Source: a virus
Reading direction: 5' to 3' (one strand)
Virus record (IMG/VR): IMGVR_UViG_3300031539_000007
Location: 32,001-96,000 of that record
Length of the DNA stretch: 64,000 bases
Below are positions 5,627 through 56,034 of the stretch, piece by piece (position 1 is the first letter of the stretch; each line of letters opens with the position of its first letter). Below the pieces are notes generated by a model. The model was not told the DNA's origin. It made no database searches and saw only the letters and a program-made list of their open reading frames with translations. The position numbers and the translations under genes are program-made.

Positions 5627-7997
5627 ATGAGTGCTGATAATTGGGCAATATGTCCGCGCTGTAAAACGCGGGCAGAGAAAGAGTACAACGAAAAAGCTGC
5701 CGTGGCTGGCGCGATGTACGGCAATGCGCCACCCAAAGAATACATGACGGCGATAGCGCAACTTAAACCTCCACGCATAGAAGAAACGTTGCGTGAATAC
5801 TACGAATTAGGTATCGAGAATGACGGGGTGTTCTGCGTGTCCTATCGTGCCGTTTGTGCATGTGGCTTCGAGTTCAGTTATGAGCACGAAGAGGAGGCTA
5901 CGTAATGGATTACATACTTGTTGCAGTAATAGCGTTGGGATTTTTGGTGCTGTTGCGCTGTAGTTATCTGGACGCAATGATTTCGTCTTTTGCCAGAGGT
6001 GGCGCGGACGCCGCTGCTATGGATTGGTTTTTTGCATGCAAATATCCGAAGGGATTGCTTGCGCGCTTTGTAAAGTTTTTGCACTATTACGGGGAGATTG
6101 CACGATGACATACAGATTCGATTATATCTTTGAAGTACTAGAGTCGTGGGCGAGAAACCACAACTAGGAGATTCTATGAAATATAATAAGTATCGTCCAT
6201 ACGATTTCTCTGGCTTGGGAAACATTTTGGCGTTCTTCTATAGAAAGGGGTGGTACTCCCACACGCTTGACTTACTCACTATCACGATGCAGGGTGGGTT
6301 CGAGGCGTTTAGCGGGAGAGCATCAGAGACATGGGAAAACAGGTTCGTTGTGAAGAACTGCGCAATCCCAGAGCTTGGCGTGGTGGCTAACAGCGCTACC
6401 GGAGAAACACTTGGGGAAGCGTGTGACACTCTCTTGAGAATTCTCGAAGCACAGAAAACGCCGTGAAAGTAAAAGTCTCGCGAGTACAGTTAAGGGCAGA
6501 TATATACGCGCACACTATCCCTACCAAGAAAGTCGCCGACTCGTATGTTGGCGAGTTACTGGCAATCGTCCCAGTGAACGGGCGTGTGTGCTATGTGATC
6601 GCGGGGAACGGGGGCGTTGTCTCACAAGAGTATGTCTCAGACTGGACAAGGATTGAGGTGGTACAATGAGCTGGGTTTTAATAGCGTTCTTGGTACTTGT
6701 CTTTGTTGCTGCTTGTGTCACATTCGGGTGGAAACATTGATCGGCTTACTGTGGCACGACTCATCCAAGCGCCCGCTGATAGAGATACTGCCAGCAGCGT
6801 TAGAGCATTATGCCAAGCGTGTTGGCGGCGTCCCCGCGTTCGTGGCGGTGCATGCAGATTGCTACGAAGAGAAAGAAGTCCTGGGAATGAGGATTGTTGG
6901 GGAATACAACGTGCTACAGTATCACTACTTTTTAGTGGAAGGAGAGCAATAACTATGCGAGCCTGGCGTTTCAAAGAAGCGCAGCTCTGGTTTAGTGAGG
7001 ATTCCGAGAGCGCGACTGGGAAAGACAGCGAGTTCTATATCGTTCTGTCACTAGAGCAAACTATCGAATTCCTCAAAGGACTGTTGCCGCCCAGAGACGG
7101 GGATGAGGAGGCCGTGTGACGACCGTACAAGAACTCAGAGATGCGCTGCGCGTTGCGGCAAGGGCGCTAGAGCAAGTGTCGGATTGGGATATAACTGATG
7201 TACGGGCACATCCGCCCAAAGAGTGGGGGCTTAAAGCGTATGGTGATGGCGCATCACATGGGTGGTGTTCTATCACCCAGCTTGCTAAAAAGCTCGCTGG
7301 GTTATCCGTAGAAGACGTACCTGACGATGAGGACGAGATGCTGGATAGCGACTATGCTTCATGGGCAGAGTGCCCGTACTAGAAACAGAGAGGGGGTTCG
7401 CTAGTGGCTGTATTTATTGGTAGTAGAGGGCAGGTGTGGTTTTGCGCGAACCCAGAGAGCGACCCACGGGTGTGGGTTTTGATGCCTGCGGATACGGTCG
7501 TAGAAACAGATCGCGAGTATCGCTATGCCTCGATTGCAGAAAACTGGAAAGTGGGAACGTTGATTATAGGAATAACATGGGATAGTGACGCTAATGGCAG
7601 AACTTAAGGAGATTCACTGATGGATTACTGGCGTGGATATATGGACTGGCCGCTGGCCTCTGAATGGGAGTGCATTGTTTGTGGAGCGCGCGTGTTGGTG
7701 TGGGGGTTTATACATGGGATATGCAGATGCGAACACTGTCACGCAGAATATGCGATGCTCGACAGGTCGAAGCGTGTCACAGTCCCAATCTCTCTACTCA
7801 AAGATGAGTACGTTGAGCCAGCCAAGTACCTGTGGGGCAAATATCACAAGCCGCTCGATGAATACGACAATGGCGACTGGGATGAGGCTCTGCGTGTTTG
7901 CCCGAACTGTAACGGCGTTGGCATTACGCAGGGCGGGACTGAGGACTACGAGTTCGCCGATTGCCCCGCCTGTGCCGGTACAGGGAGAGGCGTTTAG
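5627..7997 (+). other. Cluster of about 9 small hypothetical genes, several Cys-rich
   Basis: Tightly coupled ORFs (5627-5905, 5905-6108, 6146-6466, 6463-6669, to 6952, to 7119, 7116-7382, 7404-7607, 7620-7997) with overlapping start/stop codons and RBSs. Confidence 0.6.
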
Positions 7998-27971: not shown

Positions 27972-29036
27972 CTAAACAAGCGCCATCTCCAACTGTTCGG
28001 CATTAACCTCTGCGGCCTCTGGATAACGATAGCCAGACTCCTTGCGCAGAATCTCACCAGACATCCTCTCCATAGCTTCCTGGAAGGTCTCGCTGTCCTG
28101 TCGTTGCGCTACATAGGTAACAGCGTTGACGACATCCATCAGACGCGGTTCGCGTGCTCTGCCATACTCGCCAGCATTGCCAGTAGTCGCACCGACGGTT
28201 TCATCAATCACAGATTTAGACACACCATACTTCTTGGCGTAGCGCTCCAGTAATGGGCGCACTGTTTTCTGTTCGATGTGAATACTCTCGCTGGCGACAA
28301 ATAAACGGGCGGCGACCTCTGACATTTGTAGCGCGGTAGCCATTGCCGCCGCAATCATAGCCGCCATCATACTTTGGTCGTAGTAGCGATGGTTGAACAC
28401 CATTGCCTCTTTACATTCCCATCCAAATACCAGCCCGTTGGTACACACAGAGCGATATAGGCCACCGGCAATCTTCGCGCCACCATCACCAATCTCAGAG
28501 TTACGGATATAGACGCCCAAGTGCAGCCCGCCATACTTGTCCGACAGTTCAATCTCAGGGAAGAGCACGTAAGCACGTAGGTGGTCGTCAACACTCGGAC
28601 GGTGAACTACCGCGTGCGCACCGTCGATATGGTTCTCAAATAGCCCAACGAACCGGCTGTTGTCAAACACCGTGTACTCATCACTGAGTACGGCACGCAC
28701 CACATCACCCTTAGAGCGCACAAGATACTCGCGCCCTTTGCCAGCTTCCTGTTGCAGCATGCGATTAAAAACCTCTGGCTCGAAATCTGGCGGGCACTTT
28801 TTTTCAAGCCAGTGAATATCAGGCCCGCCAATGCGCCCGTTAAGTTGGCGGTACGCATAATCTGACAGATAGCCAGTTAGCGTCATCTCGCGCTGGAAGA
28901 GGGTGCTCGGAACGCGGTATCGCAGCGCCTTATCGCCTACGTACACCACATCTTTGGCGTGCGTGGTGTGGTCATAACAATCAACGGCGTACTCATCTAC
29001 GCTTTCTCGTAGTGCTTGCAGCGTGCTTGCGCTCAT
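27972..29036 (-). CDS. DUF932-like phage/plasmid protein
   Basis: VRAVLSD.Y..FDN, G..I.NSEIG.G, YR.VCTNGL, H; RBS GAGGAGG before ATG 29036. Confidence 0.7.
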   Translation of the reverse strand: MSASTLQALRESVDEYAVDCYDHTTHAKDVVYVGDKALRYRVPSTLFQREMTLTGYLSDYAYRQLNGRIGGPDIHWLEKKCPPDFEPEVFNRMLQQEAGKGREYLVRSKGDVVRAVLSDEYTVFDNSRFVGLFENHIDGAHAVVHRPSVDDHLRAYVLFPEIELSDKYGGLHLGVYIRNSEIGDGGAKIAGGLYRSVCTNGLVFGWECKEAMVFNHRYYDQSMMAAMIAAAMATALQMSEVAARLFVASESIHIEQKTVRPLLERYAKKYGVSKSVIDETVGATTGNAGEYGRAREPRLMDVVNAVTYVAQRQDSETFQEAMERMSGEILRKESGYRYPEAAEVNAEQLEMALV

Positions 29037-29521
29037 CGTGTGCCTCCTCTCTGATTTCTGGAATGAATCTCTTCGCAAAGTCATCAACCGGCCCACCGTC
29101 AATGACAAACATCCTCAAAATTGCCATCGCGAACGACTTGAGACCTGTGTGCTCTTTCGCCAATGCAATGGCAATGTCGCGGTCGCCACCTTCAAGGGTC
29201 GCGATCCACTCAGCAATCTCCTTCACGGCGAGCATTTACCAGCCTCCGACAGTGCGAAGATTACTGGCTCTGGTGTGTACGAGACACAGAAGAACTCATT
29301 GTTCACCTTGTACCCATGCTCAAAGCCAGCGGACTCACAAACATTGTCCAATGAATTCCCTGCAAGGGCTGTGCCGACAACCAGGCCAAACACAAAGACC
29401 AACGCCACGAGCGCCATCACAAAAGCAAAAACTCCACCGTTGTCTTCCATCGTTTCCCTCCTATCAAGTGATAAGCCAAGTATAGCACATACGCGCCGCC
29501 AGCATAGTGACAAACATCACG

Positions 29522-29755
29522 TTAGTCTTTGACGTATGTTACTCTGCCAGTGTCGATCCCCACATGCCGTGCTTCTGACAAGGAGCGGGTTTGAATCATA
29601 CACCGCTGCATCTTCGCGCTTACGCCAGCGCGTGTAGCACTATACCGCTTTGCTATCTCTATCTGCGACAAACCCTCTTCGTCGTATAGCCTTTTCAGCG
29701 TCGCGCAATCAGGTAGTTTCAAAGCACATCTCCCTCGCAATCCTTGCAGTACCAA
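29522..29755 (-). CDS. Small HTH protein
   Basis: LYDEEGLSQIEIAKRYSATRAGVS...M.R..I.TR. Confidence 0.6.
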   Translation of the reverse strand: MVLQGLRGRCALKLPDCATLKRLYDEEGLSQIEIAKRYSATRAGVSAKMQRCMIQTRSLSEARHVGIDTGRVTYVKD

Positions 29756-30043
29756 TTACAACCAGAGCCACGGATAGACGACACTGGATGGCCGCATAGC
29801 ATTGTGCCTTCTGTGGCCTTTTCTGTGCCAGCCTCGATAACGGCCAGCATAAGCTCGGCTTGCAATACAGCTCTCGCTATGTCGAATTCCCACTCGGCAA
29901 TACGCTGCACAGACGGGAAGAACAACGGGCGGATGACGCAGGCCCACGCTTTACCAATAAAGCCAATGCCGTACATAGTGTCCCTGGATTGCTCGTAAGC
30001 AGACCAGCTCGGCAGGCCAGACATCTTGACGGTGATTCCTAAA

Positions 30044-31441
30044 TTATTCAACCAGCTCATTGCCATTCTCCTTGTCATACGACGCACATTGTTCCCAAAC
30101 CTTCAGCATCTCTTCTCCGTGAGGCATGAAGCTACCCGAAATACGGGAGCTACCCATTCTACGGCCCGTCACATCAAATAGCGCTCGATTCACTTTGTCA
30201 CGCCCCCATCCATCTTGGACTGCATACAGTGCCACAACGCTTTCGGCATTGTCAAAGGGCAGCGGGGCTGGCCCCGGCTTAGTATCTAATATGTCCGCCC
30301 TGTTGAACGCGGGCCAAGATTTCATGCGTGGCTCGCCGCCCCCCAGCGCTTTGGCCTGGGCTTCTGATGTGTATGCTATCAACATCCGCGTTGTCAGTGT
30401 GTCGGTACACAAGTACGCATCGCCTGAGCCTGAGAGGAAATCTGCTCGCGGGCGCACATCGCCAACAATAGCTTCGCTCTCAAAGCGGTCGGACACATTT
30501 AAGGCCAGACGTACACCAAACTGCGCGCGTGTACCTTGTCCGCTATCGCCGAACATCTTTTGCTTGGGCGACTGCGTAGCGCATAGTAGGAAGATGCTCA
30601 CTTCGCGACCCATCTTCGATAGTAGAAATAGGAGGGAACTCACCGTGTCGTCAGCCATCGTGAACATATCAAAGTCGTCAAAGATGATGTACAGCGGCGA
30701 GAACTTCTCGGCGTCCTCGTCTGTGGCGTGGTTGCGCTCGCACATCAGACGATAGCACCATCCCAGAGCGTTGAGCACGCTTGCGCCATCTGTCGCCATC
30801 GGCCCTACCTGTCGCGGGAGTCCATTGATTACACCCAGCCCGCGGTTCCCTTTCCCGTTCAGGAGCACGAACTCGGCGTCTTCTGCAAGCACAAGCTGCC
30901 GCAGAATTGTCCAAGTGGCTACTGTCTTTCCAGAGCCGGTGCGCCCGCCGACAAGAATGTGGTGTGCTATTTGCTGGTTGAGTGTAACCACAACTGTCCC
31001 GCCACGCCCATCAATGCCGAGCGTGAAGCTGCGCCCCTTACCAGGTCGCTGCGATAGCTCTTCAAGGCCAATGTGCGTTGTTTGTAACTCTATAGGCCAT
31101 TGCGCCTCAATGTGCAGGCGTTTGCCGCTCCAATCAACGAGCGGTTCAATAGATGATACATCGTCTATCCAGGTGTCAGGGAATAGCCCGCGCGCCTTTG
31201 CGTTCTTCTGGGCGCTTAGGGCTTGGTACAAACGGTCGCCAGCGGTTCCTGGCTTAACACTGACAATCCCTGAGCGTGGCCCAGGGATGTACTTCAACTT
31301 CTCAATTGCAATTGGCGTTCCGCTATTAAAGGCGGGGTCTGAATAACACGCCGCCCACAACGCTGCGCCCAGACTGCCGAGCAGCTTCTCGCGCTCTCTG
31401 AGTAAGAACCTACGATCCTGTGGCATTCTCTTCCACAACAA
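30044..31441 (-). CDS. FtsK/SpoIIIE-family ATPase
   Basis: HILVGGRTGSGKT, LYIIFDD, GR...I.LL.ATQ.P, R.AL, G.GD; possible C-terminal HTH. Confidence 0.8.
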   Translation of the reverse strand: MLWKRMPQDRRFLLREREKLLGSLGAALWAACYSDPAFNSGTPIAIEKLKYIPGPRSGIVSVKPGTAGDRLYQALSAQKNAKARGLFPDTWIDDVSSIEPLVDWSGKRLHIEAQWPIELQTTHIGLEELSQRPGKGRSFTLGIDGRGGTVVVTLNQQIAHHILVGGRTGSGKTVATWTILRQLVLAEDAEFVLLNGKGNRGLGVINGLPRQVGPMATDGASVLNALGWCYRLMCERNHATDEDAEKFSPLYIIFDDFDMFTMADDTVSSLLFLLSKMGREVSIFLLCATQSPKQKMFGDSGQGTRAQFGVRLALNVSDRFESEAIVGDVRPRADFLSGSGDAYLCTDTLTTRMLIAYTSEAQAKALGGGEPRMKSWPAFNRADILDTKPGPAPLPFDNAESVVALYAVQDGWGRDKVNRALFDVTGRRMGSSRISGSFMPHGEEMLKVWEQCASYDKENGNELVE

Positions 31442-40144: not shown

Positions 40145-40172
40145 AGTATAGCACGTACAAGTGTAATGTCAA
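40145..40172 (-). promoter_or_regulatory. Leftward sigma70-type promoter
   Basis: TTGACA-ttacacttgtacgTGc-TATACT; nearly the same sequence as the 32748-32775 promoter. Confidence 0.75.
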
Positions 40173-40493
40173 ATGAGATTCGTGGATTTGTTGGTGGCGA
40201 GATGACCGTATTACGCAGGGCAAGTTTTCGCTCAATGATTCGACGTGGGGGAGGTGGCCCGTACAATTGTACATCTTCAGACTATATGCATTATGACAAG
40301 TAATCGGACATATTCGGACATTCTACGTATTGTGGCACATCATAGCATAGCATATCATACTATATTCTAACCACAACCGCATGGTCAAGCACTGCAAAGT
40401 TGGATTGTTAGAATTAAAGCACGCTCATAAGTTATTGCACAGTTAGAATCTCATCCGCCAGGTGCATCTCACGCCCGCAGAGCCACCCTTACG

Positions 40494-40994: not shown

Positions 40995-41022
40995 TTGACA
41001 TCTTCGCAGCGTCGCTTATAGT
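40995..41022 (+). promoter_or_regulatory. Rightward sigma70-type promoter heading the early-like region
   Basis: TTGACA-N16-TATAGT. Confidence 0.65.
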
Positions 41023-41906: not shown

Positions 41907-42404
41907 ATGTTTCAAAATCAGGTGCGTCAACTAAAATCCGTAACAAAAAACGTCAACAAAGGCCAGGCGAAAGCCGCTGTTATCTTTGCGCAAGTCAAAA
42001 CGCAGTTTCATGACGTGAAAAAGGCCAACCGGGTCAAGTGGGAGTTCTCCAATTTCTCCGAGTTTGTCACGGCAACCGGTTGGGCTCCCTCCACTGCTTA
42101 CCAGTTGGCCCGTTGGGGGGCTAACGGTGGTGAACTCGCAGCATTAGCAGTGTACGGAATCCAACACATGCAGGCGTTTGATACTGTTCGCGAGTGTACC
42201 ACGCTTGACGCTTTCCTGGAAAAGTGTGAAGAGTTCCCGAACCCTTCGGATATTGGTGAACTGAAGTCATGGGCAGAAAGTGTGCAAGGCAAGGTTACAG
42301 ATAGGGAAAGCTTGGAGCGCGACATCGCCAATCTGGAGAAGTCTATCGTGAATTTTACCGCGAAGCTTGCCGAAAAGAAAGCCCTACTAGCGGCCCTCCA
42401 GTAA
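41907..42404 (+). CDS. Putative HTH DNA-binding protein with C-terminal coiled coil (DUF3102-like pattern)
   Basis: W.F.NFSEFV..TGW.PSTAYQL.R helix-turn-helix-like segment; heptad tail LERDIANLEKSIVNFTAKLAEKKALL; RBS AGGAG. Confidence 0.55.
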   Translation: MFQNQVRQLKSVTKNVNKGQAKAAVIFAQVKTQFHDVKKANRVKWEFSNFSEFVTATGWAPSTAYQLARWGANGGELAALAVYGIQHMQAFDTVRECTTLDAFLEKCEEFPNPSDIGELKSWAESVQGKVTDRESLERDIANLEKSIVNFTAKLAEKKALLAALQ

Positions 42405-42587: not shown

Positions 42588-45500
42588 TTCTAGTCACTAT
42601 AAAACCCTTGTGCAAATTGGAGTGCATGACTTGTATATGGTCGGGCATGCAAGCGATTGCATGCCTAGATACTAGGGGGAGCGATGTCCGCCGATTAAGT
42701 CATGACAGTTGACCGGCAAATTTGACGGTCATGCATTGCAATTTGCACAAGGGGATTTTCTGGTAAAAGGGGAATGCCATGAGTATGCTGCTCGATCAGT
42801 ACTTTCCAAGGGATAACGGCGAAGCTTCTGTGATTATTGCCGAAGCATGCCACGGGCAATTTTCTACGCTCGGAAGGTTCAAGGAAGCGAAAAGGCAAGG
42901 GCTGGGCATGCCAAAAACCGTAAAAATTCAGGGGAGTCTGCCCATGCCTGTGAAAAAGTACCGGGCAATCCGGTACAATTGACTGAAAATTCTAGTCACT
43001 AGAAAGTCACGTCAAAAAAGGAGCTATTAAAATGAATACGTCGTACAACATTTCCAGCATGGAAGCACTCCGCGAAAAGAAAAAGAATGGATACGCGAAA
43101 GCCATGACTGCTTGGGGAGTCCCCGAATGGCTGCGCTTGCAGTTCTGCCAGCAAATCCGCGACACACACGATTATGGCGATGTGTGCGTCATCATGGGGA
43201 AAATTGACGCCTACTCGAACGCCGCAGGGCTGAGAGCATTTTACGAATATTCTAGTGACTAGAAAGGGGGAAAAATGTGTCACGTAACAAACCATGTGAT
43301 GGAGGCGCACGAGCGTCATCCTTTACTCAGGAAGATCATGAGCAAGGAAAAGTTCGCCTTGCTTATCAGTATAGTGTCACAGGAAAATTTTACGTGCGAT
43401 ATTGCCCTTGCCGTGTACGATTGCGGCGAAATTCTTTTGAATCCCACGCAGGATGAGCGTGGGAGATTTGTTGTTCTTATCGTGCGCAACAACAAAATTG
43501 TGTGCGCATGCCTATCTCAGCGTCTCGACGCGCGCCACTTGCGCGTCGAAAAAGTTGTGAAAATATTCTAGTCACTAGAAAAAGGAGAGCTTGTAATGAC
43601 TATGTTTATGAAGTTTTCGCGGGGTGGAGTGTTTGAAGCGGCGGAGTTTGGCGCATACAACATGATTCCGACCGGTGAACAGGTAGCTCCACCTGTCGCG
43701 GGTGACGTTGTTTTTGTGTCCAACTATGTACCCTCCTGCGACTTTAGCGGGCAGGTAGGGAAGATGGCCGCCGCAGAATCAAGAGGTGCGGCGGAGTGGG
43801 CCGCAAGTCACGGGCTGCGGCTTGTATTCCGGGGGTTCCCCGGAGCGAACATACGTAACGCTGAGGGGTGTATGCCAGCGTTGCTTTCCGTCTAAAAACT
43901 TTCTAGTCACTAGAAAAAGTCTAGTGGCATCAAAACCCTTAAGGAGTATTAAAATGACTATCCAACGCACCAAGACCGAAAAGAAGTCCGGCACATCGTT
44001 TTCCGTCGGGGTGAATATCATCCTGGCAGGCAGTAAGGCCATGACGCCTGAGCAACAGGAAAAAGCCTTGACCGTGGCGAAAGTCCGCGTCCTTATTGTC
44101 GATGCTGACAACCCTAAGAACGTCCTGGTCGATGAGACCGCACCGGCACGCGAATTTTCCACGGGAAGCGTGGGCTATGGGCTGAATATCCGTAGCGCAG
44201 AATTCAAGCAGTAGTGGTGTGCCCTCGTGCCACAGCGAGGGCGATCAATTATTCTAGTGACTAGAAAATTTTAGGAGGATCGGGATGGAATACACTATCG
44301 AGTTCAAGGAACACCTGGCGAAGAGTCTGGCGGGGCATATCGCCAGCAGCGCGGCCACTGGGCCGTACTCCGAGGTGCATTGTGTTGTCTGCGGGCGTGT
44401 GGGCGTAGTCGCCTACAACTACGCGGTCGAGAATCCCGGCGTGTGGGCCTGCGCCTACTGTAACACGGGCTAGAACTCTTCTCCTGCCCATCATCCTCGT
44501 GATGGGCAGGCACGGAGAGAAAAAGGCGAAAATTATTCTAGTGACTAGAAAGGAGAGGAGAGCTATGAAAATTCAAACACTGTACGACCTGCGGGAACTG
44601 ACAGGTTTTGTTAGCGGGACGGACTTGCAAGATATGTTCCACGAAATCTTGGGGGAGATGTCCCCAAGTGGCAATTGTGAAATAGGCGCCGCCGCACTTG
44701 CCAGTAACGATGTGGGCAAAGAGGCTTTGCGATTGCTAGCGGCCCCACTGGTCGACGTCATTGAGTCAATTATGACATACGGAATGTCTTGAAAGCTAAT
44801 ATTCTAGTGACTAGAAAAGGAGTGTTTGTTATGGATAAAATTTATCTCGCCTACTACATCAGTAGGCGTGGGCATCACAAAGAAATCTTATACGTTGGGA
44901 CAGACAAAAACGCCGCAATATCTCGCGTTGAAAGCTTCTGCGGCAGTAACATGTATGCCCAGGAATTCCTGGGCTGTGTGGAGACATGGACGGCGGGGCG
45001 ACGCATCCTGCTGGAAAGGGTTGTCTGAATATTCTAGTGACTAGAATTCCCTGGCCGCCACGAGCATAGCGCCGTGGATCACGCTTGTAGTCATCGGCGC
45101 GAAAAGTGCCGGGGATTCTAGTCACTAGGAATCTTTTGAAAGGAGAATCATGATTACAATCAAAGTGGATGGGATTATCACGGTCGATACGTTTTCGTTC
45201 GAGGATGCGGTCGATATGATCGTAGAGGCGCTGGAAAAGTACGGCGTCGAGATTATGGCCGTGTATGAAAAAGTTGAAAATTCTAGTGACTAGAAAAAGT
45301 CACGAAGGAGTATTATGAACAAATGTTATACACAGAAGCGGTATTCGACATGGTATGGGGCGGCGAGGTCATTGCCGAAGAACCTGAACTCGTCGCTAGG
45401 CCCGCCCCACTTTTCAGTGGGCGATAGGGTTATACAAAAGCGCCCGGTGTGTGGCGAACGGCTAACCGGCACGATTATATCAGTCGTTTATCCGCCACTT

Positions 45501-48500
45501 GTACTTGACGGCGCGCAACTATTAGTGGCGGGCTACGAGGTGCAATGGGATAATGGCGACCACTGCGCAAGCGTGCGCGAGCCGTATTTGACCAAGATAA
45601 ATTCTAGTGACTAGAAAAAGTCACGAAGGAGTAACATGTACAAAACCGTTGGGGACATCCCCGAAGATTATGTCCTGGTGCAGACAGACCATGAGGTTCA
45701 ATCTGTACTTGAGTACATCGGCGTAACCGAAAATTATCCTTATGTGTTTGTCAAACTTGACGAAAGTGGCGCTGATTATCTGCACGTTTATGGGTGCTAC
45801 AGACTGTACCTTGGCGCTCCTGTTTACCAGGAACTATAAGGAGTATTATAATGTGGCATTTTACAGAATCACTTGTTGGACAAAGAATGCTGGTAAAAGA
45901 AACACGCGCCGAAGTCTTTTTGACGGGCCGCCGCGTCTATGACGGCAGTGTGTATATTTACGAGACCGACGCGGGCAACTTCCTGGGGGAAGAACTGTGC
46001 CGCGTTGGGTCAATTTAATTCTAGTGACTAGAAAAAAGTCACGAAGGAGCAACATGAAAAACATTGCTACGGTTAAGGACGCGCTGCATAACGCAGTGCT
46101 TGAAAAGTCTGACTACGCTCGCGGTATTGTCGTGGGCGTGGTGGCTGCCATTATGGGGCAAAAGGGCTGCTTGTTTAAGACCGCCCTCAGAGAAGTCAAG
46201 CAGATGAAACCCGCAATCCATATCGAGAATCTGCCAGAATGCTGGCGTGAAGACTGGATGAAACTCTAGTCACTAGAAAAAAATCTCAAAAGGAGAATAC
46301 AATGGCTGCACATATTTTGACTGGTATCAAACAAACGATTAAGATGCTGCGCGAAAACCCCGAAGCGGCGAAACCGCACATCGTCTGCGCCTGTGATTTG
46401 TCCTGCTGGACTGAAGACGACACTCATGTGTGGGGAAATCTCTACGACTGGACACAAGGGAGGCTCGCCACAAGCGCGCTCATCGAGTATCTTGAATTCC
46501 AGGTGTGGCACTTCTGGGATTTGTACTACAAACTTGGCGAACCGTATACTCGCGAAGAGTGGAATCTGTCACGCTTCCACGGGCTTGAGGCACTCGCAAA
46601 ATATCGCGACGAAGAAGACTCCAGGACACTGGCTATGCTTTCCGCAGAGAAAACATACATCCGACCAGGCGAAAAAGTCCTGATGGAATGTGCTTACTCT
46701 GAGGCTGCAATGCACCTTGGCGTGGCTGGCAAAGTGATGACTGTCAAGCTGCTTGAAACCGAATACCCAACGGCGCAACTATACCGCCGCAACGGGGAAG
46801 AGAAAAGCTTCCCTATCACTTACTCTGAGGCCGGGTTCTACCAGGACGAGGGTGGATTCTACTACTACCCGAAACGTTCTAGTCACTAGAATAAATGTCT
46901 ACTCATCTCTGAGTAGACAAAGGAGCAATATGACTACTGTTAAAGTTATCAACACTCGCTACAATCCACGCGGCGCGAGCGTCGTCGTGGAAGCAAAGTT
47001 TGACCGCTGGACTTCGTATCTGGAAGTAAGCCACGACCAGCCATGCGGGTATAACTATCGGCGGATGCGTCACGAAACTGACCCGCTTGCCGATTGGGTA
47101 CGCCTTGAAACCGCCGAGCGCGACATCACAGCGGAAGGTGTGCGCCTGGCGAAAGACGCCATTATCGTGGCCGACAACTCTATGGAAGAGGCGTGCCGCT
47201 GGTTCAAGTACTCGCAGCTATACGAAACAATGCAGGCAGTCGTCACGGAGACCGTTAAAAACTACCAGGATGATTTCTACCTGCACGATTGTACACGTCT
47301 CGGAATGGCGCACCCATTCCCCGAAGTGCTCCGCTGGTACGTTCGTGAGAGCGGAACGTTTTTGTTCTTCGGAGAAGAGGTCGGCGAATGGGAATGTGCT
47401 GTGCGCAAACAGTGGCCCGACGCCCGCATATTCCGCTATACCTCAGAGGACGGACTGGCGGAAATTTCTAGTCACTAGAAAGGAGATTGCGATGACCGAC
47501 AAAGAGATACTTGAAAGGTTATGTGCCATGCTCAACGGTATTACTAAAAAGTTCGGGGTAACACTAGCGGTTGTGGAGATAAAAGGCACGATTTACTTTT
47601 TCCCTCAACTATCTTCTAGTGACTAGAAAGTTTTAACAGTGTGGTGCGTCACTGTTAAATACGCACCGATTTCATTCATTCAAATAAAGGAGACTTACGA
47701 TGACCTGCATAGGAACAACCGCGACAACCATAGCGAAAAACTCTGTGACGTATCACGAAACGACAGTCGTTGCATTTAGCAGCGGCACAATCACCCTCGA
47801 CAGCGGGGGATGGAGAACTGTGACGACCAAGAAGCGAATGAACCAGGCCAGCACTGAATTCGGCCTTGGATACAGCGTCTTTCAGAAAGACTTCGGCTGG
47901 TTTGTTGACCTTCCGAATGGCGAGACCGTTGACTTCAAAGACGGGATGACTTTTAGTCGGTAAAAGATTCTAGTCACTAGAAAAAGGAGCATTACGATGG
48001 CTAAGGAAAAAGTTGTCAGAATTGGTACTGTTGATTATTACGGGAAAAGGGTTAGCGTGTTCTGCGAAATCGGCGTCAAGAATGGCGAGCTATCAATCAC
48101 CGGCGTCGTCGGGCCAAAGCGAAACGGTGACGCGGAGGGCGGGTGCGGGCAAATAGACCTGAGCGAATATTCAGGGTGGGAATTCGCTGCTGGATGGGAC
48201 AAAGAAACACTTGACAAATTCACGGACGTGTGGGCAAGATGGCACTTGAACGACATGCGCCCTGGCTGTGAGCATCAGCGTGATTGGGATACTTCAGAGA
48301 AGATTGGAGTCATCCAATACACATATACCGACCTATACACAACGCTCTCCAAGATGGAGAAAACTATGCCGGAACGTCTAACATCACTAGACAAAGAAAA
48401 TCTTGCACTTGGCAAGAAAGCGTTTCGCGCCTTCCTAGGATACGGTAACGGCACACGGGGAGACGTGCTTGAAGCATGCGAAGCAGGACTACTCAGGACG

Positions 48501-51500
48501 TGTGGCATCGAGGAAAAGCTTGCTGGATGGGTATACCCAACACAGCACGAGAAAGGCTTACTCACAAAGCCATGCCCCGTATGCGGTTACAAGTACGGTT
48601 CTGCTTGGCTCAAAGAAGAGTTACCACAGGACGTGTTTGACTTCATTGACAATTTACCGCACACTGACATCGCATATCCGTGGCGATAATTCTAGTCACT
48701 AGAAAATAAAGGAGCGATATGAACGGGTGGACTTACAATTACGGGGAAGAGTACGACGAACGTGCGCAGACTTCCATACTCGGTGAACCAAGCCGATTGA
48801 TGATGTGCCTAACACACGACGAGCTGTGCAATATGCAGACGGCAATCGTCGTCGAAACGTGGGAACACTTCGTTGGGCGAGACGCGGCTGGTAGCAAGCG
48901 CCGAAAATATCACGCCGAGTTCGACGAGAAGGAGCGCAAGCTGGCGGGTAAACTGCACACCAGGTTCTACCGCTGGCATCTTGTAACTGGCGTGCCGCAG
49001 AAAGTCGTTATGTCTGCACGCACCATCAGCTTCGTCGAGAGGCTGGTAGCGTTCGCGGCGACAGTGTAAACAATCTAGTCACTAGAAAAAAGGAGCTATT
49101 AAAATGACCGAGTTACAGGATTTGACCAAGAAGGCTTTGGTTCGTATGGTAGAAGTGCTAGAAGCGTCCCTGAAAAGCGCGCTGGATAACTCTGCTTTCG
49201 CGTGGCGTCAACATAACGCACTGCGCGTCGATTTGCAGCAAGAACAAAGCAAGACGCACAGCCTTGACATTGAGTGCAAGCTGGCATTCGCGCTCTCTGA
49301 AAACCGCAGGTGGGAAGATGTTGCCGCCGACATCGTGGAACAGGAACGCGAGATGTGGCACAATGCCTCACTGCTCCACACGAGCATCGACGACGACGAA
49401 TTAGGGGACAAGTTCGAGACGGCGCTAGAGCTATACGTCCGTGAATGGGTTGGCGAGAAAGAGCGAGAGATTCTTGAAAAGTTTGGGCGCAGCGTCTCTG
49501 TCTATCAATACGGACGGGGCGGGGCAACCATTTCTATAGATGGCTTCTACAGCGAAACATACCGGCGTGGTGCAAGCGATGCGAATATCCGCTACTTCGA
49601 TAACGACGACCTGGACGAAGAAGAATTGATCGCCTATTACAACGAGGACGTTCAAACCCTTGCTATCCTGGAATGGCTTGACGAGAAGGTGCGCGAAACA
49701 GTACGCGGCTTGCCCGAATGGTGGGTAGGAGAACGCGAGTATTGGACTGACGGCCTCTACACACTGTACCCGCAGTGCTGAGGGAACGTGCTTGGCGCAC
49801 TTGAAATGATGGCGTTGTAATTTTCTAGTGACTAGAACAAAGGAGAACAAGTAATGTTATCAGAAAGCAAGTACAAAGAACTCCGCGAACGGATAGACAA
49901 GCATTACGCTTGGCTACAAGCGCGCGATTTCAAACCATACAAAACAGAAGAATGCCCACAGGTATTGCGTGTGACGAACGAGGAGTATGGTGCTGTAGAA
50001 GTCTATGAATGGCACAATGACCCGCCAGACAAATACTTCGCTTACGTGAAGGTCGGGTGCGTGTATGTTGATGGTGTCGGGACATACGAGGCCACGGTTA
50101 CAACATGGATGGGAGATACCATCGGACACGCTGGGCTTGGATGTAAATATCGCTCCAACTTCGGTGACATCCGCGTCCCCATTTCTGTAACTGGGACTAA
50201 CGACAAGCACTATTACGGAACGTACTACAAGTCAGCGGGTGATTATTGCCGCCTGACTGCATACAAGGAGGCCCGCAATGGGTAGGGGTGTGGCGTTTCC
50301 GCACAGCGACGGCGCAGAGCAAATCATTGTAGACGTGCCATTCTTTGATGATGACGAATATGGCGAAGAGAAATCGTTGTGGTTTGACGACCTGAGATAC
50401 CGTGTTAAACACACGCTGCCAGATTCATTCTACTTCGATGATGGCGTGGGGTGCTTCTGCTGGGAATGGAGTAGCTGCTTGCTCAAAGTGTCCCTACACG
50501 GCGAAGACACACTGGCACACATTTACATCGAAGCGCAAGAACAAGACGAGTTCCAGCATCACAAGAATCTCGCTTGGAATCACCTTGATAACCTTTACAA
50601 GAAAATCGGGAAAAAGTTGCAAGACTACGGGTATGAGTTGCGCCAGCGCACAAGCTCGTGGACAACTGGGCATCTGGATTTCTAGTCACTAGAAAGTGTG
50701 GGGCGTGCGACTCCACACTGTCATTCACAGAAAGGAGACACATGGTGTATGTATGTTTGTCCGGTACGCTCTACGAGAACAACGTGTGCGGTGATGTGTT
50801 TGTGCATACCGTATACACAAGAGAGGAAGACGCGATAGAATGGAAGGAATACTGCGACCGTACATCACAGAGGTTGGAACGTGTGTACTGGGTTGCGGCA
50901 GTTTCTAGTCACTAGAATAAAAGGAGACTCGTAATGGATACGCAAATTAAACGTGTTGTGTCTAGCAGTAGTTGTGCCACGGTATACGAACTCGAATGTG
51001 GATTACGCCTACGCTATTTTATTATTGTCACAGGGATACCTGCCCTTGAGTACGACGACCATACATTCCCGAAAAGATTCGATGTCATCGACAAATATAA
51101 TGTAGCGTGGGACAGAGCGCTCAAGCGGTATCCGTTCCAGAAGGACGGAGAACACCCAAACGTCGAAGAGATTGGCGGGCAAGCGACAATCGACGAATAC
51201 ATTGCAGAAACCTATTCAGAGAAATTGCTCAGCGATATTCCGTTACCAGAAAGCACACCGCCCAAAAAAGAAGCACTGCCAATGTTTAGCAATCCGACCC
51301 TAGCCAACCGATTCAGAAAAGATTTTGATATGCCACTGCTAACATTCACCGACCGCTTAATGACACGTATCCGTGGTTCATTCTCGTTTGATGTCATAGC
51401 GTTCGATGGATACTGCCACGAAGCCCTGGGGTATAGCGAGGACGAGCACGGCAGCCTCAACGATTTCATCACGGCGAAGTCAGGGAAGGATATGGCAGAT

Positions 51501-54500
51501 TTCTTACGAGGTCTGCTGTAGCAAAGGAGTACCGCTATGGAAATTATTAGGGTGTGCAAGCAAGGATACAACCCCATCGAATTGCGCAACAACGATGGGG
51601 TGTGGGAGTACGCCGTCGGAACGTATCTGGATGGGAGCAAGCACTGGGTGGCGATACCCCTATTAGAAGAGATTATCTTGCAGACCATCGAAGAATACAA
51701 ATGTGTCTAGTCACTAGAAAGGAGACTAACAATGTTTAGCGAAACACAGAAGAACCAGAGAAACTTAACGCCCGAAGAGAAGGCTGTAGTTGATGAGCAA
51801 TCGCGTATCGCCACCGCCAAGTACAAGGCAGTATGGTACGGCGATGACGGTGGGTACACGACGAGCGATGCGTACAGGAAAGCCAGGGGCGGAAAGAGCG
51901 TGCGCTATGGCAATGAACTGCTTGACTGCGCGCTGGCTTTGTGCGGAGACCCGTGGTACGTGATGACGGGCCGCCACTACTGCCAAGAGGCACGAGACTT
52001 CTTGGCGCTGTTCGAGCAAAAGGAGACTGACAATGTGGGCTAAATGGGTAGCGATAGAGTTTGACGAAACCGGATACTGGAATGAGGACTTCTTGGAAAA
52101 GTACGGCATCGAGAAGGTGCGCGCCGTGTACGTCTACAACGAAAATCTGTACGTGCATTGCTGCGAAATCACTCCGAGCTATGAGCTATGGTTTATCAAT
52201 GATTATCCCGTGATGAAGAGTGAGGCAGATACAGGGCGGGAGGAAGCATGGGAAGCAGTGATGGAAGCTTCCACTGAACCAGTAGAATACCACCACGTTC
52301 AACACCTTGACCGCATTCCATTCGGGGAACACAAGAAGAGAATGTGGAGCGAGAATATTAAGCGCGACGAGTACGATGAGCACAGAGACGATGCGATTGA
52401 GAGCGAACGCTGCAATGGCTCTTTCTGTTAAACATTCTAGTCACTAGAAAACAATCCCTACTCAAAGATGAGTAGGCAAAGGAGATACACGATGAAGAGC
52501 ATATATATAAAACTTACTATCTGCATGTACTGGAAGAGGGCAGACGGGGGAGAAATTAGCGACGGCGTTCGCGAAATTCTCGATGAATCCGGCACTGATA
52601 GGGCTATCGCCATGATTGGCGAGGGATACACGTCAGGCGAACTCAATGATAACATCCGTATGCACGACGACGACCCAGAAGACGGGATTGAGTACACCGG
52701 CTCGTGGAAAACAGCATACGAATCTGGAGGCACACGATGAACATCAAAGAACGACTCGAATATCTGCGCGGAGAAATCCTAGCAGAACGGATGAGTTATG
52801 GCGACATCGTAGAGCTTGAATCACTCGCAGAACATATCGGCGATGATGTCCTGCTCTTAGAATGGGCTGGCGTACCTGAATTCCCTGACGACGAATCCTA
52901 GTCACTAGAAAGGAGAATAGCAATGGAAATCAAGAAATTTGTTGAGCTAAACAAAATCACGATGCAATCAGAAAATGTTTTGGCGAACAAGAACATGCCC
53001 GACTGGGCAAGCGCCAGACACTACAAGGCCGTATTTAAGTACGGCAAGCGACAGATGACCACATACTTTTCTATGGGCCTCGGTCTTATTGATGCCCCGA
53101 CAGTAGAAGATGTGCTGGATTGCTTGGCGTCCGATTCTGCGGGTGTCGAAAACGCCCGCGACTTCGCCGATTGGTGCAACGATTATGCCTACAACCAGTA
53201 CGACAAGAAAGCCGAGAAAACATACAAGGTTTGTGTGCGTCTAGCCGAAAAGCTGGAAACGTTGCTTGGCGAAGGGTTGTACAACGAACTGCTTTGGGAA
53301 ACCGAGCGGCTGTAAATCACAATTAACCTATCCAAAGGAGATACACGATGAAACAACAGGTTATGTTACTGGTAAACGACGACAAGAAAATATACAAACT
53401 GCCGCTGTTAGCGAGCGTGTACAACGGGCTGGCCGTTCACAAATCATTCACCATTGAGGATGGCACGCTTGTCGAAAGAGATAAGTACTTTACTTGGGAT
53501 GTCAGCCACGTAGGTACAGGGCTGCATATTGACGGGTGCGATTTCAGCAGGAAGCGCGATGCGGTTGCGTTTGCGAAAGCGTTGTCCAAAGGTGTAGACC
53601 TTGACACAGATTCGCAAGCTGAGGCTATCAAGCGCATCCTTGAGAAGTACACCCGCGAACAATGTCTTGAGATGCGGAGCGCCGCAAGGGTAGGGAAGCT
53701 ATGAGAGAGAGCTTTGAAACATTCGCAGAGTACATCGTCGAAGAAGTGAACGAGCTAAACGAATCAGGGAAGATGACTGATGCGCAACTGCAAACACTTA
53801 CAGGAAATCTGGTGAGCACTATGGTTGAGAGCTTCGTCGAGAAGCCCACCGAGTACGACTACGACGAGCTATCGACTGGCACAATCCGCGAAGGGTTGCG
53901 CTTTCTTGAAGATGGCATCACCACCCACTTCCTATCACGCATTTTACCAGAGGCTATGGTCGATGCGGTCGTTGAAACCCTTGAAACAGTCTTGAAAGAA
54001 CGCGAGAAGAGTCTCGCCAAAGGAGCACAATGAGAACCATACAGCAAATCGAACGCAAGGCCAAGGCACTAATCGCCGCGTATCGTGAAGAGGCCAGGAC
54101 AAAAGGCTACAGCGAGAACATGGGCGAGAAGTACATGCGCCAACTCGACAAGCACGTTGGTAACTTTTATGATTACGACTGGGACAACAGGCGACAGATT
54201 CTATCTATTACAGAAGACTTGGAAAGAGTCGTCACAAATCCATAAGGGAGAATGAATAGCAATGAAACGCGAAGGGAATACCTATTGGAATATGAAAGGA
54301 AAGTATCAGGAGTACGCTTTCGCAGTCAGTGCGCTTATCCCATACAAGGGCAAGGCCAGTAATCTGCACCTCGACCTGTTCAGAAACACGGTACGCCTAT
54401 ATCACGACTACTACACCAATGGTGGCGATAACTTCGGGGATTGCTTTTACCTAGACCTCTACCATCTGATGTATCACGCCGACGAACTAGAGAGCGTGGC

Positions 54501-55408
54501 GGTTGACGAAGGCGAGCCGCTTATCAGCAGACTTCTTGAGCGCATCTTCGGGGGGTTCGGCGGCAAGGTAGTTTTCAACGAGAGCCTTACCCATAACCTT
54601 GAGAAACTAGCTGACATTGTAGCACGCTATGCTTGGGAAAAGGAGCACAGCAATGACTGAAACATACACCATCAAAATATTAGCGGGTGGCAAGCGGTTT
54701 GACATCTACGTGTCGGACAACGAGCTTATGGAAACCGAAATCCTGTTCGAGTCCATTGACGGCGAGACCGTCGAGTTTGAATTGTGGGTCTTGCTAAACG
54801 ACGAAGACGAAGTGATGCTTGTAATGCAAAGCGGTGATAAGTGTCACTTCACAGCCGAAGCTTTTCGAGATAGTATCACAGGTGAGGTCAAAGCAATGGC
54901 CTCACAACTCACGGCAAAGGAGCACGATGAGGAACACGACGAGCGAAAGAGAGACGGCAACAATTAAAGCTCTTTATGCGGCAGCGTATGATGCCGCAAT
55001 CTTTCTGAGAGCACAAGAAATAAGGGACATCGTAGAAAGCGCGATTTATGATAACTACGATGACTACGACGCTATGTTTGAAGATTGGTGAAAAGGAGAA
55101 CTAACAATGACTGCACACGGGGAACAACTTAAAGCACTGGTACAGCAAGCACTCGACACTCCGCCCTCGGAACTCGAAGAGTTCTACAACACGCTGTCGA
55201 ATGCGGCATACAGCGAGGCCGCGCAGGAGCTTAACGCACTCGCCCAAGCCGCCGCGTTGCGTGCGGAATACCTAGAGAATATGCGCGACGGTGCGGGGCA
55301 CACGCAATCGGCGAAGCTTGCCGTGTGCGTGCTCAATAAAGTACGCAAGGCAATGGGCTATACGTACAAGAAAAACTTTAGTTTCTGATAAGTTTCTAGT
55401 CACTAGAA
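42588..55408. repeat. Array of 27 15-bp palindromes TTCTAGT(C/G)ACTAGAA delimiting small genes
   Basis: Starts at 42588, 42990, 43250, 43566, 43901, 44252, 44536, 44802, 45032, 45116, 45281, 45602, 46019, 46264, 46877, 47466, 47614, 47968, 48690, 49073, 49823, 50680, 50903, 51705, 52435, 52896, 55394; 21 perfect, 6 with one mismatch. Confidence 0.95.
43032..55388 (+). other. About 35 small hypothetical genes in the palindrome-delimited units
   Basis: Examples: 43032-43262, 43275-43571, 43596-43895, 43954-44214, 44285-44473, 44565-44792, 44831-45028, 45150-45293, 45315-45614, 45636-45839, 46054-46269, 46302-46889, 46930-47478, 47492-47626, 47700-47963, 47997-48689, 48719-49069, 49104-49781, 49854-50285, 50278-50685, 50742-50915, 50934-51521, 51537-51710, 51732-52043, 52033-52431, 52492-52740, 52737-52901, 52923-53315; most have an AGGAG-type RBS. 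Confidence 0.8.
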
Positions 55409-55716: not shown

Positions 55717-56034
55717 ATGATTCACGAGCAATACACAAAACTCAAAGACGAGAATCCCAACGCCTTGTTGCTTATGAAGCTTGGCGACTTCTACGAGGCG
55801 TTCGACAAAGACGCCGACCAACTCGCGGAGGCGTGTGACCTGACAGTCACAACAAGACGCAATAGCCCTAACAAGGAGTGGCGGATGGCAGGCTTCCCGT
55901 ACCACTGGCTTGAGGGAAACATCAGGAAACTCTTGGATGCAGGGTACACGGTGGCAATTGCCGAGCAGCGGCCCAGCGACGGCGGGCGTATCGAAAGATA
56001 CGTTGAACGGGTTATCAGAAAGAAAGGAGACTAA
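55717..56034 (+). CDS. Stand-alone MutS domain I (mismatch-recognition domain) protein
   Basis: QY..LK...P.ALLL..LGDFYE.F..DA...A....L..T.R...MAGFPYH.L...I.KL...GY.VAIAEQ...IER.V.RVI. Confidence 0.88.
   Translation: MIHEQYTKLKDENPNALLLMKLGDFYEAFDKDADQLAEACDLTVTTRRNSPNKEWRMAGFPYHWLEGNIRKLLDAGYTVAIAEQRPSDGGRIERYVERVIRKKGD

Follow-up and report, generated by a model that had tools for sequence, protein, structure and literature searches.

Introduction

Stoperators, which serve prophage silencing in Cluster A mycobacteriophages, are asymmetric sites oriented with transcription, at which the bound repressor blocks the elongating polymerase, and the start-associated sequences (SAS) of Cluster K are asymmetric motifs that include the Shine–Dalgarno (SD) sequence and lie upstream of the starts of some genes. 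Integron attC sites are imperfect inverted repeats of about 57–141 bp with R/L boxes and an adjacent IntI tyrosine recombinase, and each PeSL (promoter early stem-loop) repeat of T4-type phages fuses an early sigma70 promoter to a terminator-like stem-loop. Here, a 15-bp palindrome, TTCTAGT(C/G)ACTAGAA, is described, which forms an array in the uncultured phage G000 (IMG/VR record IMGVR_UViG_3300031539_000007; 113,043 bp). The analysed stretch of 64,000 nucleotides (the window) comprises record bases 32001–96000, and site and gene coordinates are given in window numbering unless marked as record. From their sequence and placement, the palindromes are tentatively read, at somewhat less than an even chance, as an operator or roadblock array on a host-transcribed early operon, occupied by a putative binding protein.

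A 17-bp repeat with 7-bp inverted arms, a variable 3-bp centre and no meaningful orientation was described for Cluster O mycobacteriophages (Corndog and relatives), where more than 30 copies are spread over each genome, many of them intergenic and one third inside genes (PMC4351075). These phages are lytic-type without integrase, and the repeat was interpreted as the target of a dimeric DNA-binding protein; the Cluster A stoperators (L5 gp71) comprise dozens of short sites (PMC4351075). The KorB operator (OB) of plasmid RK2 is a 13-bp palindrome with a single central bp, present in many copies on one replicon and read by a dimer that acts as global silencer, KorB being a ParB-family CTPase clamp (PMC11790492).

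The palindrome array of phage G000

A pattern search of the window recovered 27 copies of the palindrome at ≤1 mismatch, all at 42588–55408 and 21 of them exact, against a chance expectation of 0.01 copies (100 shuffles). This recount agrees with the initial annotation, made from the letters of the window, which had reported 27 copies in 13 kb and no copy elsewhere in the window. The latter statement extends to the entire 113,043-bp record, in which no further copy was found even at ≤2 mismatches; the proposed full-genome scan thus returned the same 27 sites, and a comparable genome-wide motif density was not seen. The palindrome is region-specific within G000. Its middle base was C in 17 copies, G in 10 and never A or T, and neighbouring sites were 84 to 2498 bp apart.

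Centre G was found in site 3 (43250–43264), site 6 (44252–44266), site 7 (44536–44550), site 8 (44802–44816), site 9 (45032–45046), site 11 (45281–45295), site 12 (45602–45616), site 13 (46019–46033), site 17 (47614–47628) and site 21 (49823–49837). Centre C was found in site 2 (42990–43004), site 4 (43566–43580), site 5 (43901–43915), site 15 (46877–46891), site 16 (47466–47480), site 18 (47968–47982), site 19 (48690–48704), site 22 (50680–50694), site 23 (50903–50917), site 25 (52435–52449) and the final copy, site 27 (55394–55408), and likewise in the six copies with one mismatch, namely site 1 (42588–42602; mismatch at position 13), site 10 (45116–45130; position 14), sites 14 (46264–46278), 20 (49073–49087) and 24 (51705–51719; each at position 1) and site 26 (52896–52910; position 2).

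The sites lie among about 45 small rightward (+ strand) ORFan genes. At 25 of the 27, an AGGAG-type SD is followed by a start codon 10–47 nt downstream, in agreement with the earlier observation that nearly all copies sit at gene boundaries before an AGGAG ribosome-binding site. The distance from site to SD was 0–35 nt, the SD abutting the site at sites 7 and 16, and about 14 upstream open reading frames (ORFs) stop on TAG or TGA within or at the palindrome. The two exceptions are site 17, with the next start codon 71 nt off, and site 9, which is followed by no gene, only by the next site 84 bp on. A position matrix of the 27 sites held no information at −25 to −5 and hence no fixed −35/−10 element, in line with the reported lack of a TTGACA-type promoter beside the sites; the flanks were merely A-rich (A at −4, −3, −1 and +16), with no T-run and no other conserved flank. 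Promoter-like matches within the array were few and weak.

Units between sites hold 1 to 8 genes, more than the 1 or 2 short ORFs stated initially; the stretch 52923–55388 contains 8 genes and no site. HMM (hidden Markov model) and structure searches had been proposed for the cargo genes, and the comparison of 13 array proteins with Pfam and PHROG yielded no family for any of them; no two array proteins were paralogous. Hairpins were noted between site and SD at sites 15, 22 and 25. The three successive units behind sites 11, 12 and 13 share the same leader (45296–45310, 45617–45631 and 46034–46049), which partly repeats the site centre and might base-pair with it. Just past the last site, 55717–56034 encodes a 105-aa protein that resembles, by eye only, an isolated MutS mismatch-binding domain I.

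The same word in unrelated phages

An exact motif scan of IMG/VR, followed by further scans, gave other array-bearing contigs, labelled G001–G022 or with L numbers. Arrays of the core TCTAG, 3 bp, CTAGA were present in contigs without nucleotide or protein similarity to G000. The bearers were a T7-like podovirus clade, including two complete genomes (G001 and G022) and many further members with arrays in IMG/VR, and two fragments of larger phages, G005 (GC 40%) and G006 (GC 32%). A metagenome two-site scan added a 2-kb high-GC contig with a real array (L168). The same word also occurs as a near-copy in the 29-bp unit of a 2-kb minisatellite on a 428-kb metagenome contig (L167, WLWD01006159.1), which was set aside as unrelated to the phage arrays.

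The T7-like podovirus G001 (39.6 kb, 99% complete) encodes a single-subunit RNA polymerase. Its 11 sites run from the left end to just past the RNA polymerase gene, with one more before the DNA polymerase gene, and its structural genes are without any site. G022 carries 14 sites, only at 27.1–35.9 kb. In both complete T7-like genomes, the sites are limited to the stretch between the left end and the end of the polymerase gene, apart from one before the DNA polymerase gene; this site-bearing stretch is the host-transcribed part of the genome. Rare variants with a 4- or 5-bp centre were noted at G001 6458–6473, immediately behind the capsid terminator and adjoining the following start codon, and in L179 and L191 ahead of the RNA polymerase gene. 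In a phage of GC 31% (L211, at 1395 and 1634; also L214), the core stands at the tip of an inverted repeat of about 35 bp, possibly another element that incorporates this word.

The arrays of G005 and G006 adjoin the gene of an 870-aa protein (L195:10541–13147 and L196:10205–12829) that belongs to phrog_8308 ("unknown function"), contains a DQDSD motif and matches clusters of putative RNA-dependent RNA polymerases (RdRP) in the ESM Atlas with a template modelling (TM) score of 0.93. The protein probably represents a single-subunit two-barrel RNA polymerase of YonO type, which Pfam PF05183 misses. Among the array bearers, the polymerase is T7-like in G001, G007, G014 and G022 and probably YonO-like in G005 and G006. 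Near the G006 array, L196:14820–16256 encodes a beta-CASP/metallo-beta-lactamase protein with an RMMBL RNA-specificity domain (RNase J/CPSF-like).

BLAST, phmmer and 89 clade HMMs detected no protein common to G000 and the other array bearers, with the exception of weak DUF932 (PF06067) matches at window 27972–29108 (− strand), G001 29777–30490 and G007 5729–6169 (− strand), which have a C-x-N-G-L motif in common. No other family was seen both in G000 and in the T7-like clade; in the latter, the matching gene lies directly before the RNA polymerase gene, and the pairwise comparison was not significant. A literature string search found no phage paper containing the palindrome, and the SrpA palindrome of phage K5 is a different motif. 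The motif is apparently undescribed, and its spread over unrelated phages is the surprising part.

Site architecture: DNA operator or RNA hairpin

Across lineages the site has the general form N-TCTAG, any 3 bp, CTAGA-N, with invariant 5-bp arms and a spacer of strictly 3 bp, as G000 and G001 are almost without CTAG pairs at other spacings. The centre triplet is TSA in G000, YNR in G005–G009 and ACC, GGT, ACT or GCC in G022, and the outer pairs are lineage-specific yet symmetric (TT..AA, GG..CC, TG..CA). In G022 the asymmetric centre occurs in both orientations within one gene direction; therefore, the element is without polarity. Invariant arms, a variable centre and symmetric outer pairs fit duplex DNA read by a dimeric protein.

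The position of sites in relatives also appears operator-like and supports this reading. In G005, one site stands between a terminator and a promoter-like stretch, and two more lie between that stretch and the SD. In G022, about 42 bp separate the first site from the first sigma70-type early promoter downstream of it, and five strong sigma70-type promoters of this genome stand upstream of a site, four by 33–75 bp and one by about 200 bp. In the T7-like clade, the RNA polymerase gene is preceded by a terminator and then a −10-like hexamer, which either abuts the site or overlaps it.

The symmetry suits RNA as well, since covariation in an inverted repeat does not tell a protein operator apart from a hairpin. 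The palindrome might instead be transcribed within a long early mRNA and form a short hairpin (5–7 bp stem, 3-nt loop) before each ribosome-binding site, where a nuclease or RNA-binding protein would cut the transcript into stable single-gene messages or turn early translation off. Parallels are the RNase III sites of T7 early mRNA and RegB/RegA of T4. The occurrence of one site per cistron, 0–35 nt before the SD, is consistent with such punctuation, as are sites between stop codon and terminator, which place them inside transcripts. In T7, each early gene is preceded by an RNase III site and such sites flank the polymerase gene, a pattern that the site distribution in the T7-like genomes seems to mirror. 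Covariation of the outer pairs around a variable loop is typical of hairpins, some site variants are wobble-compatible, and G006 encodes the beta-CASP/RMMBL ribonuclease. However, that enzyme is absent from G000, G001, G005, G007 and G022, and little RNA is expected at those sites that precede the first promoter or closely follow a terminator. An invariant stem sequence would, moreover, need a sequence-specific reader, and none is held in common. The isolated RNA hairpin of the G000 site is weak (−3.0 kcal mol−1) and without extended structure, the flanks of the G000 sites giving no RNA structure beyond shuffled controls, which supports DNA over RNA. On balance, RNA-level punctuation is considered rather unlikely.

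The palindrome as a possible promoter

Another explanation takes the palindrome as promoter of a phage-encoded single-subunit RNA polymerase, either of T7 type or as a hairpin promoter of N4 type. Most array bearers encode their own polymerase (T7-like or YonO-like), no other repeated motif was seen in G001 or G022, and the polymerase gene is directly followed by a site, an arrangement like that of the phi1.1 promoters in T7. Site positions 1–15 are identical to the T7 promoter (−14 to +1) at 10 of 15 positions, the TCACTA core included; the chance probability of this match is about 0.025 over four promoters and all offsets, and the would-be −8 to −6 positions vary freely. The lack of polarity of the element also stands against a promoter: no directional conserved sequence of T7 type (about −17 to +6) was found. 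Pfam and PHROG models gave no T7-like, N4-like or RdRP/YonO-like polymerase match in the end-overlapping genome of G000 (PF00940, phrog_414, phrog_2166, PF05183, phrog_8308 and sigma70_r2), although the Pfam RdRP model also misses the G005/G006 enzyme. For an N4-type promoter, an N4-like polymerase was likewise lacking and the loop was variable, and a start 11 nt from the loop centre would land in the SD where the SD abuts the site, just as the transcript of any such promoter would there be nearly without leader. Two unrelated polymerase families would, in addition, need to read one word. The promoter explanation is largely refuted for G000 and is, taken as a whole, highly improbable.

The palindrome as a possible recombination point

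According to the initial annotation, the array could be a gene capture or shuffling platform with the palindrome as recombination point. Gain, loss or exchange of small early genes would then depend either on a site-specific enzyme or on recombination at short homologies, as has been proposed for the T4 PeSLs. Sites flank genes as well as promoter and terminator modules, and G000 encodes a UvsX/RecA-like recombinase. The gene-order comparison that had been suggested for this case was performed as a crude test on relatives of G001, not of G000: 16 related T7-like arrays with 185 homology breakpoints were scored for breakpoints within 25 bp of a site. Mild enrichment was found, 25 of the 185 breakpoints lying ≤25 bp from a site against 14.8 expected, and some replacements among relatives start ≤10 nt after a site (L027 vs. 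G001, G007 vs. G009). The far ends of these same replacements fall at gene boundaries without a site, and 160 of the 185 breakpoints are not at sites.

Further observations speak against the platform. The remark that no recombinase besides RecA is visible in the window holds genome-wide for the tyrosine and serine types, neither of which was found in the end-overlapping G000 genome (PF00589, tyrosine recombinase, had no match in the whole of G000). The array is without paralogues, and no cassette is common to lineages that use the same site. The 7-1-7 palindrome is also shorter than known recombinase core sites. A recombination point is considered improbable, and because breakpoints are mostly away from sites, a regulatory role is left by the reasoning of the initial annotation itself.

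A proposed operator array on the early operon

In the operator reading, each palindrome would be a copy of one dyad-symmetric protein-binding site on double-stranded DNA, and the sites would tag the part of the genome that host RNA polymerase reads first. A dimeric protein could occupy all copies at once and thereby bring the early operon under joint control, most likely by blocking polymerase at gene boundaries and promoters, so that the early genes are switched off as a block; activation instead of repression would be compatible with the same sites. What is observed directly is that the sites exist, that they are symmetric and confined to the early region, and that unrelated phages carry them too. 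The binder would be either an early phage product or supplied by the host.

As a lead only, a gene directly upstream of the first site (41907–42404, + strand) encodes a 165-aa orphan protein with a helix-turn-helix-like stretch and a long C-terminal helix. Two large protein searches gave no homologue of this protein, and its AlphaFold model was unusable, with a predicted local distance difference test (pLDDT) score of 42. The T7-like clade offers a second lead in its conserved first early gene, which has a similar helix-turn-helix-like stretch; hhalign of the two gave E 0.44, which is not significant. The model of the T7-like first early protein reached pLDDT 74, and Foldseek and VIA-align returned only sub-threshold helical matches (best Z 5.9). 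ParB (PF02195) had no match in G000 and seven other array-bearing records, while controls matched. Since the core is invariant and no common phage protein was seen, a host factor stays in play.

Several points weigh against an operator array. By the searches given above, no protein was common to G000 and the other array bearers, the weak DUF932 matches excepted; were the binders phage-encoded, an invariant core without a common protein would be odd. A site at each cistron, close against the SD, exceeds the needs of initiation control and would suit an RNA-level signal as well. The G000 array is without internal promoters; therefore, only a roadblock or coating role is left there. Single copies in bacterial genomes look like chance. 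When the initial proposal of a dense operator or roadblock array read by one phage protein is divided into its parts, the operator part gives the best fit, through the exact symmetry, the strict 3-bp spacer, the lack of centre orientation and the promoter-adjacent sites in relatives, whereas the part of one phage protein finds no support, no protein being detectably common to the lineages.

In a wider form, which is possible but rather doubtful, the word would be an early-region address tag in unrelated phages (the T7-like clade, the phages with YonO-like polymerase and G000), read by one conserved host factor or by convergent phage proteins that handle the host-transcribed early genes as one block, and would then amount to an undescribed regulatory system. 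Most host-takeover and anti-defence genes of phages lie in the early regions, and to our knowledge the switch-off of these regions as a block is known for few model phages only. A short exact tag offers a handle for finding the reader protein and an easy means of recognising early regions in metagenomic phage contigs by their sequence; should a host protein be the reader, the tag would also point to the hosts of these phages.

Genome context of the array

Record positions 1–138 of G000 repeat at 112906–113043 with 99.3% identity, and the genome is closed or terminally redundant with a short terminal repeat. Because of this 138-bp end overlap, the IMG/VR label of "82% complete" (and linear) is probably an underestimate. 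G000 encodes a long tape-measure protein, portal, ribonucleotide reductase, the UvsX/RecA-like protein, two FtsK-like ATPases, DNA methyltransferases and a DnaB-type helicase; a 1145-aa protein resembles an amidase or glycoside hydrolase, by a Pfam amidase match and weak ESM Atlas matches. Close relatives were found neither by megablast against INPHARED nor by a related-locus search with the FtsK-like protein, and tblastn with portal and FtsK-like protein returned distant phages only.

A strong sigma70-type promoter (40995–41022, + strand; 11/12 consensus positions) probably starts the rightward early operon that carries the array, and two divergent leftward sigma70-type promoters (11/12 and 10/12) lie at 40145–40388 (− strand). 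Bacterial genomes scanned for the palindrome held single copies only, compatible with chance, with no arrays and no clue to the host. In about 20 near-identical IMG/VR contigs (L004–L046), one palindrome copy lies about 230 bp from a homologue of a G000 protein (record 29490–30245; 26% identity), a nearness that may be due to chance.

Comparison with known systems

Integron attC arrays and T4 PeSLs resemble the G000 array in having repeated elements between small early or accessory genes. The integron case differs in that the element here is a perfect 15-bp palindrome without conserved flanks or attC structure and no integrase was found; unlike a PeSL, the palindrome is without promoter boxes and without a terminator-type stem-loop, and there was no sign of cassette duplication or exchange. 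With the SAS it shares the character of a short repeated motif directly upstream of translation starts, although the SAS is not palindromic.

Dozens of short sites at gene boundaries within operons are common to the array and the stoperators; in contrast to the latter, the palindrome is symmetric, and neither an integrase nor a recognised repressor was found in G000. OB has a similar single-centre 13-bp design and matches the core at 9 of 13 positions, by eye, whereas its reader has no counterpart here, as the ParB N-terminal domain was missing from G000 and the seven other array-bearing records.

The closest described analogue is the Cluster O repeat, which is alike in architecture, not by homology: invariant arms, a variable unoriented 3-bp centre and tens of copies. 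By analogy, its reading as a dimer site would support an operator. The Cluster O repeat has another arm sequence, is not linked to start codons and occurs in one phage cluster only, whereas the palindrome is confined to the early region, stands against the SD and recurs in unrelated phages.

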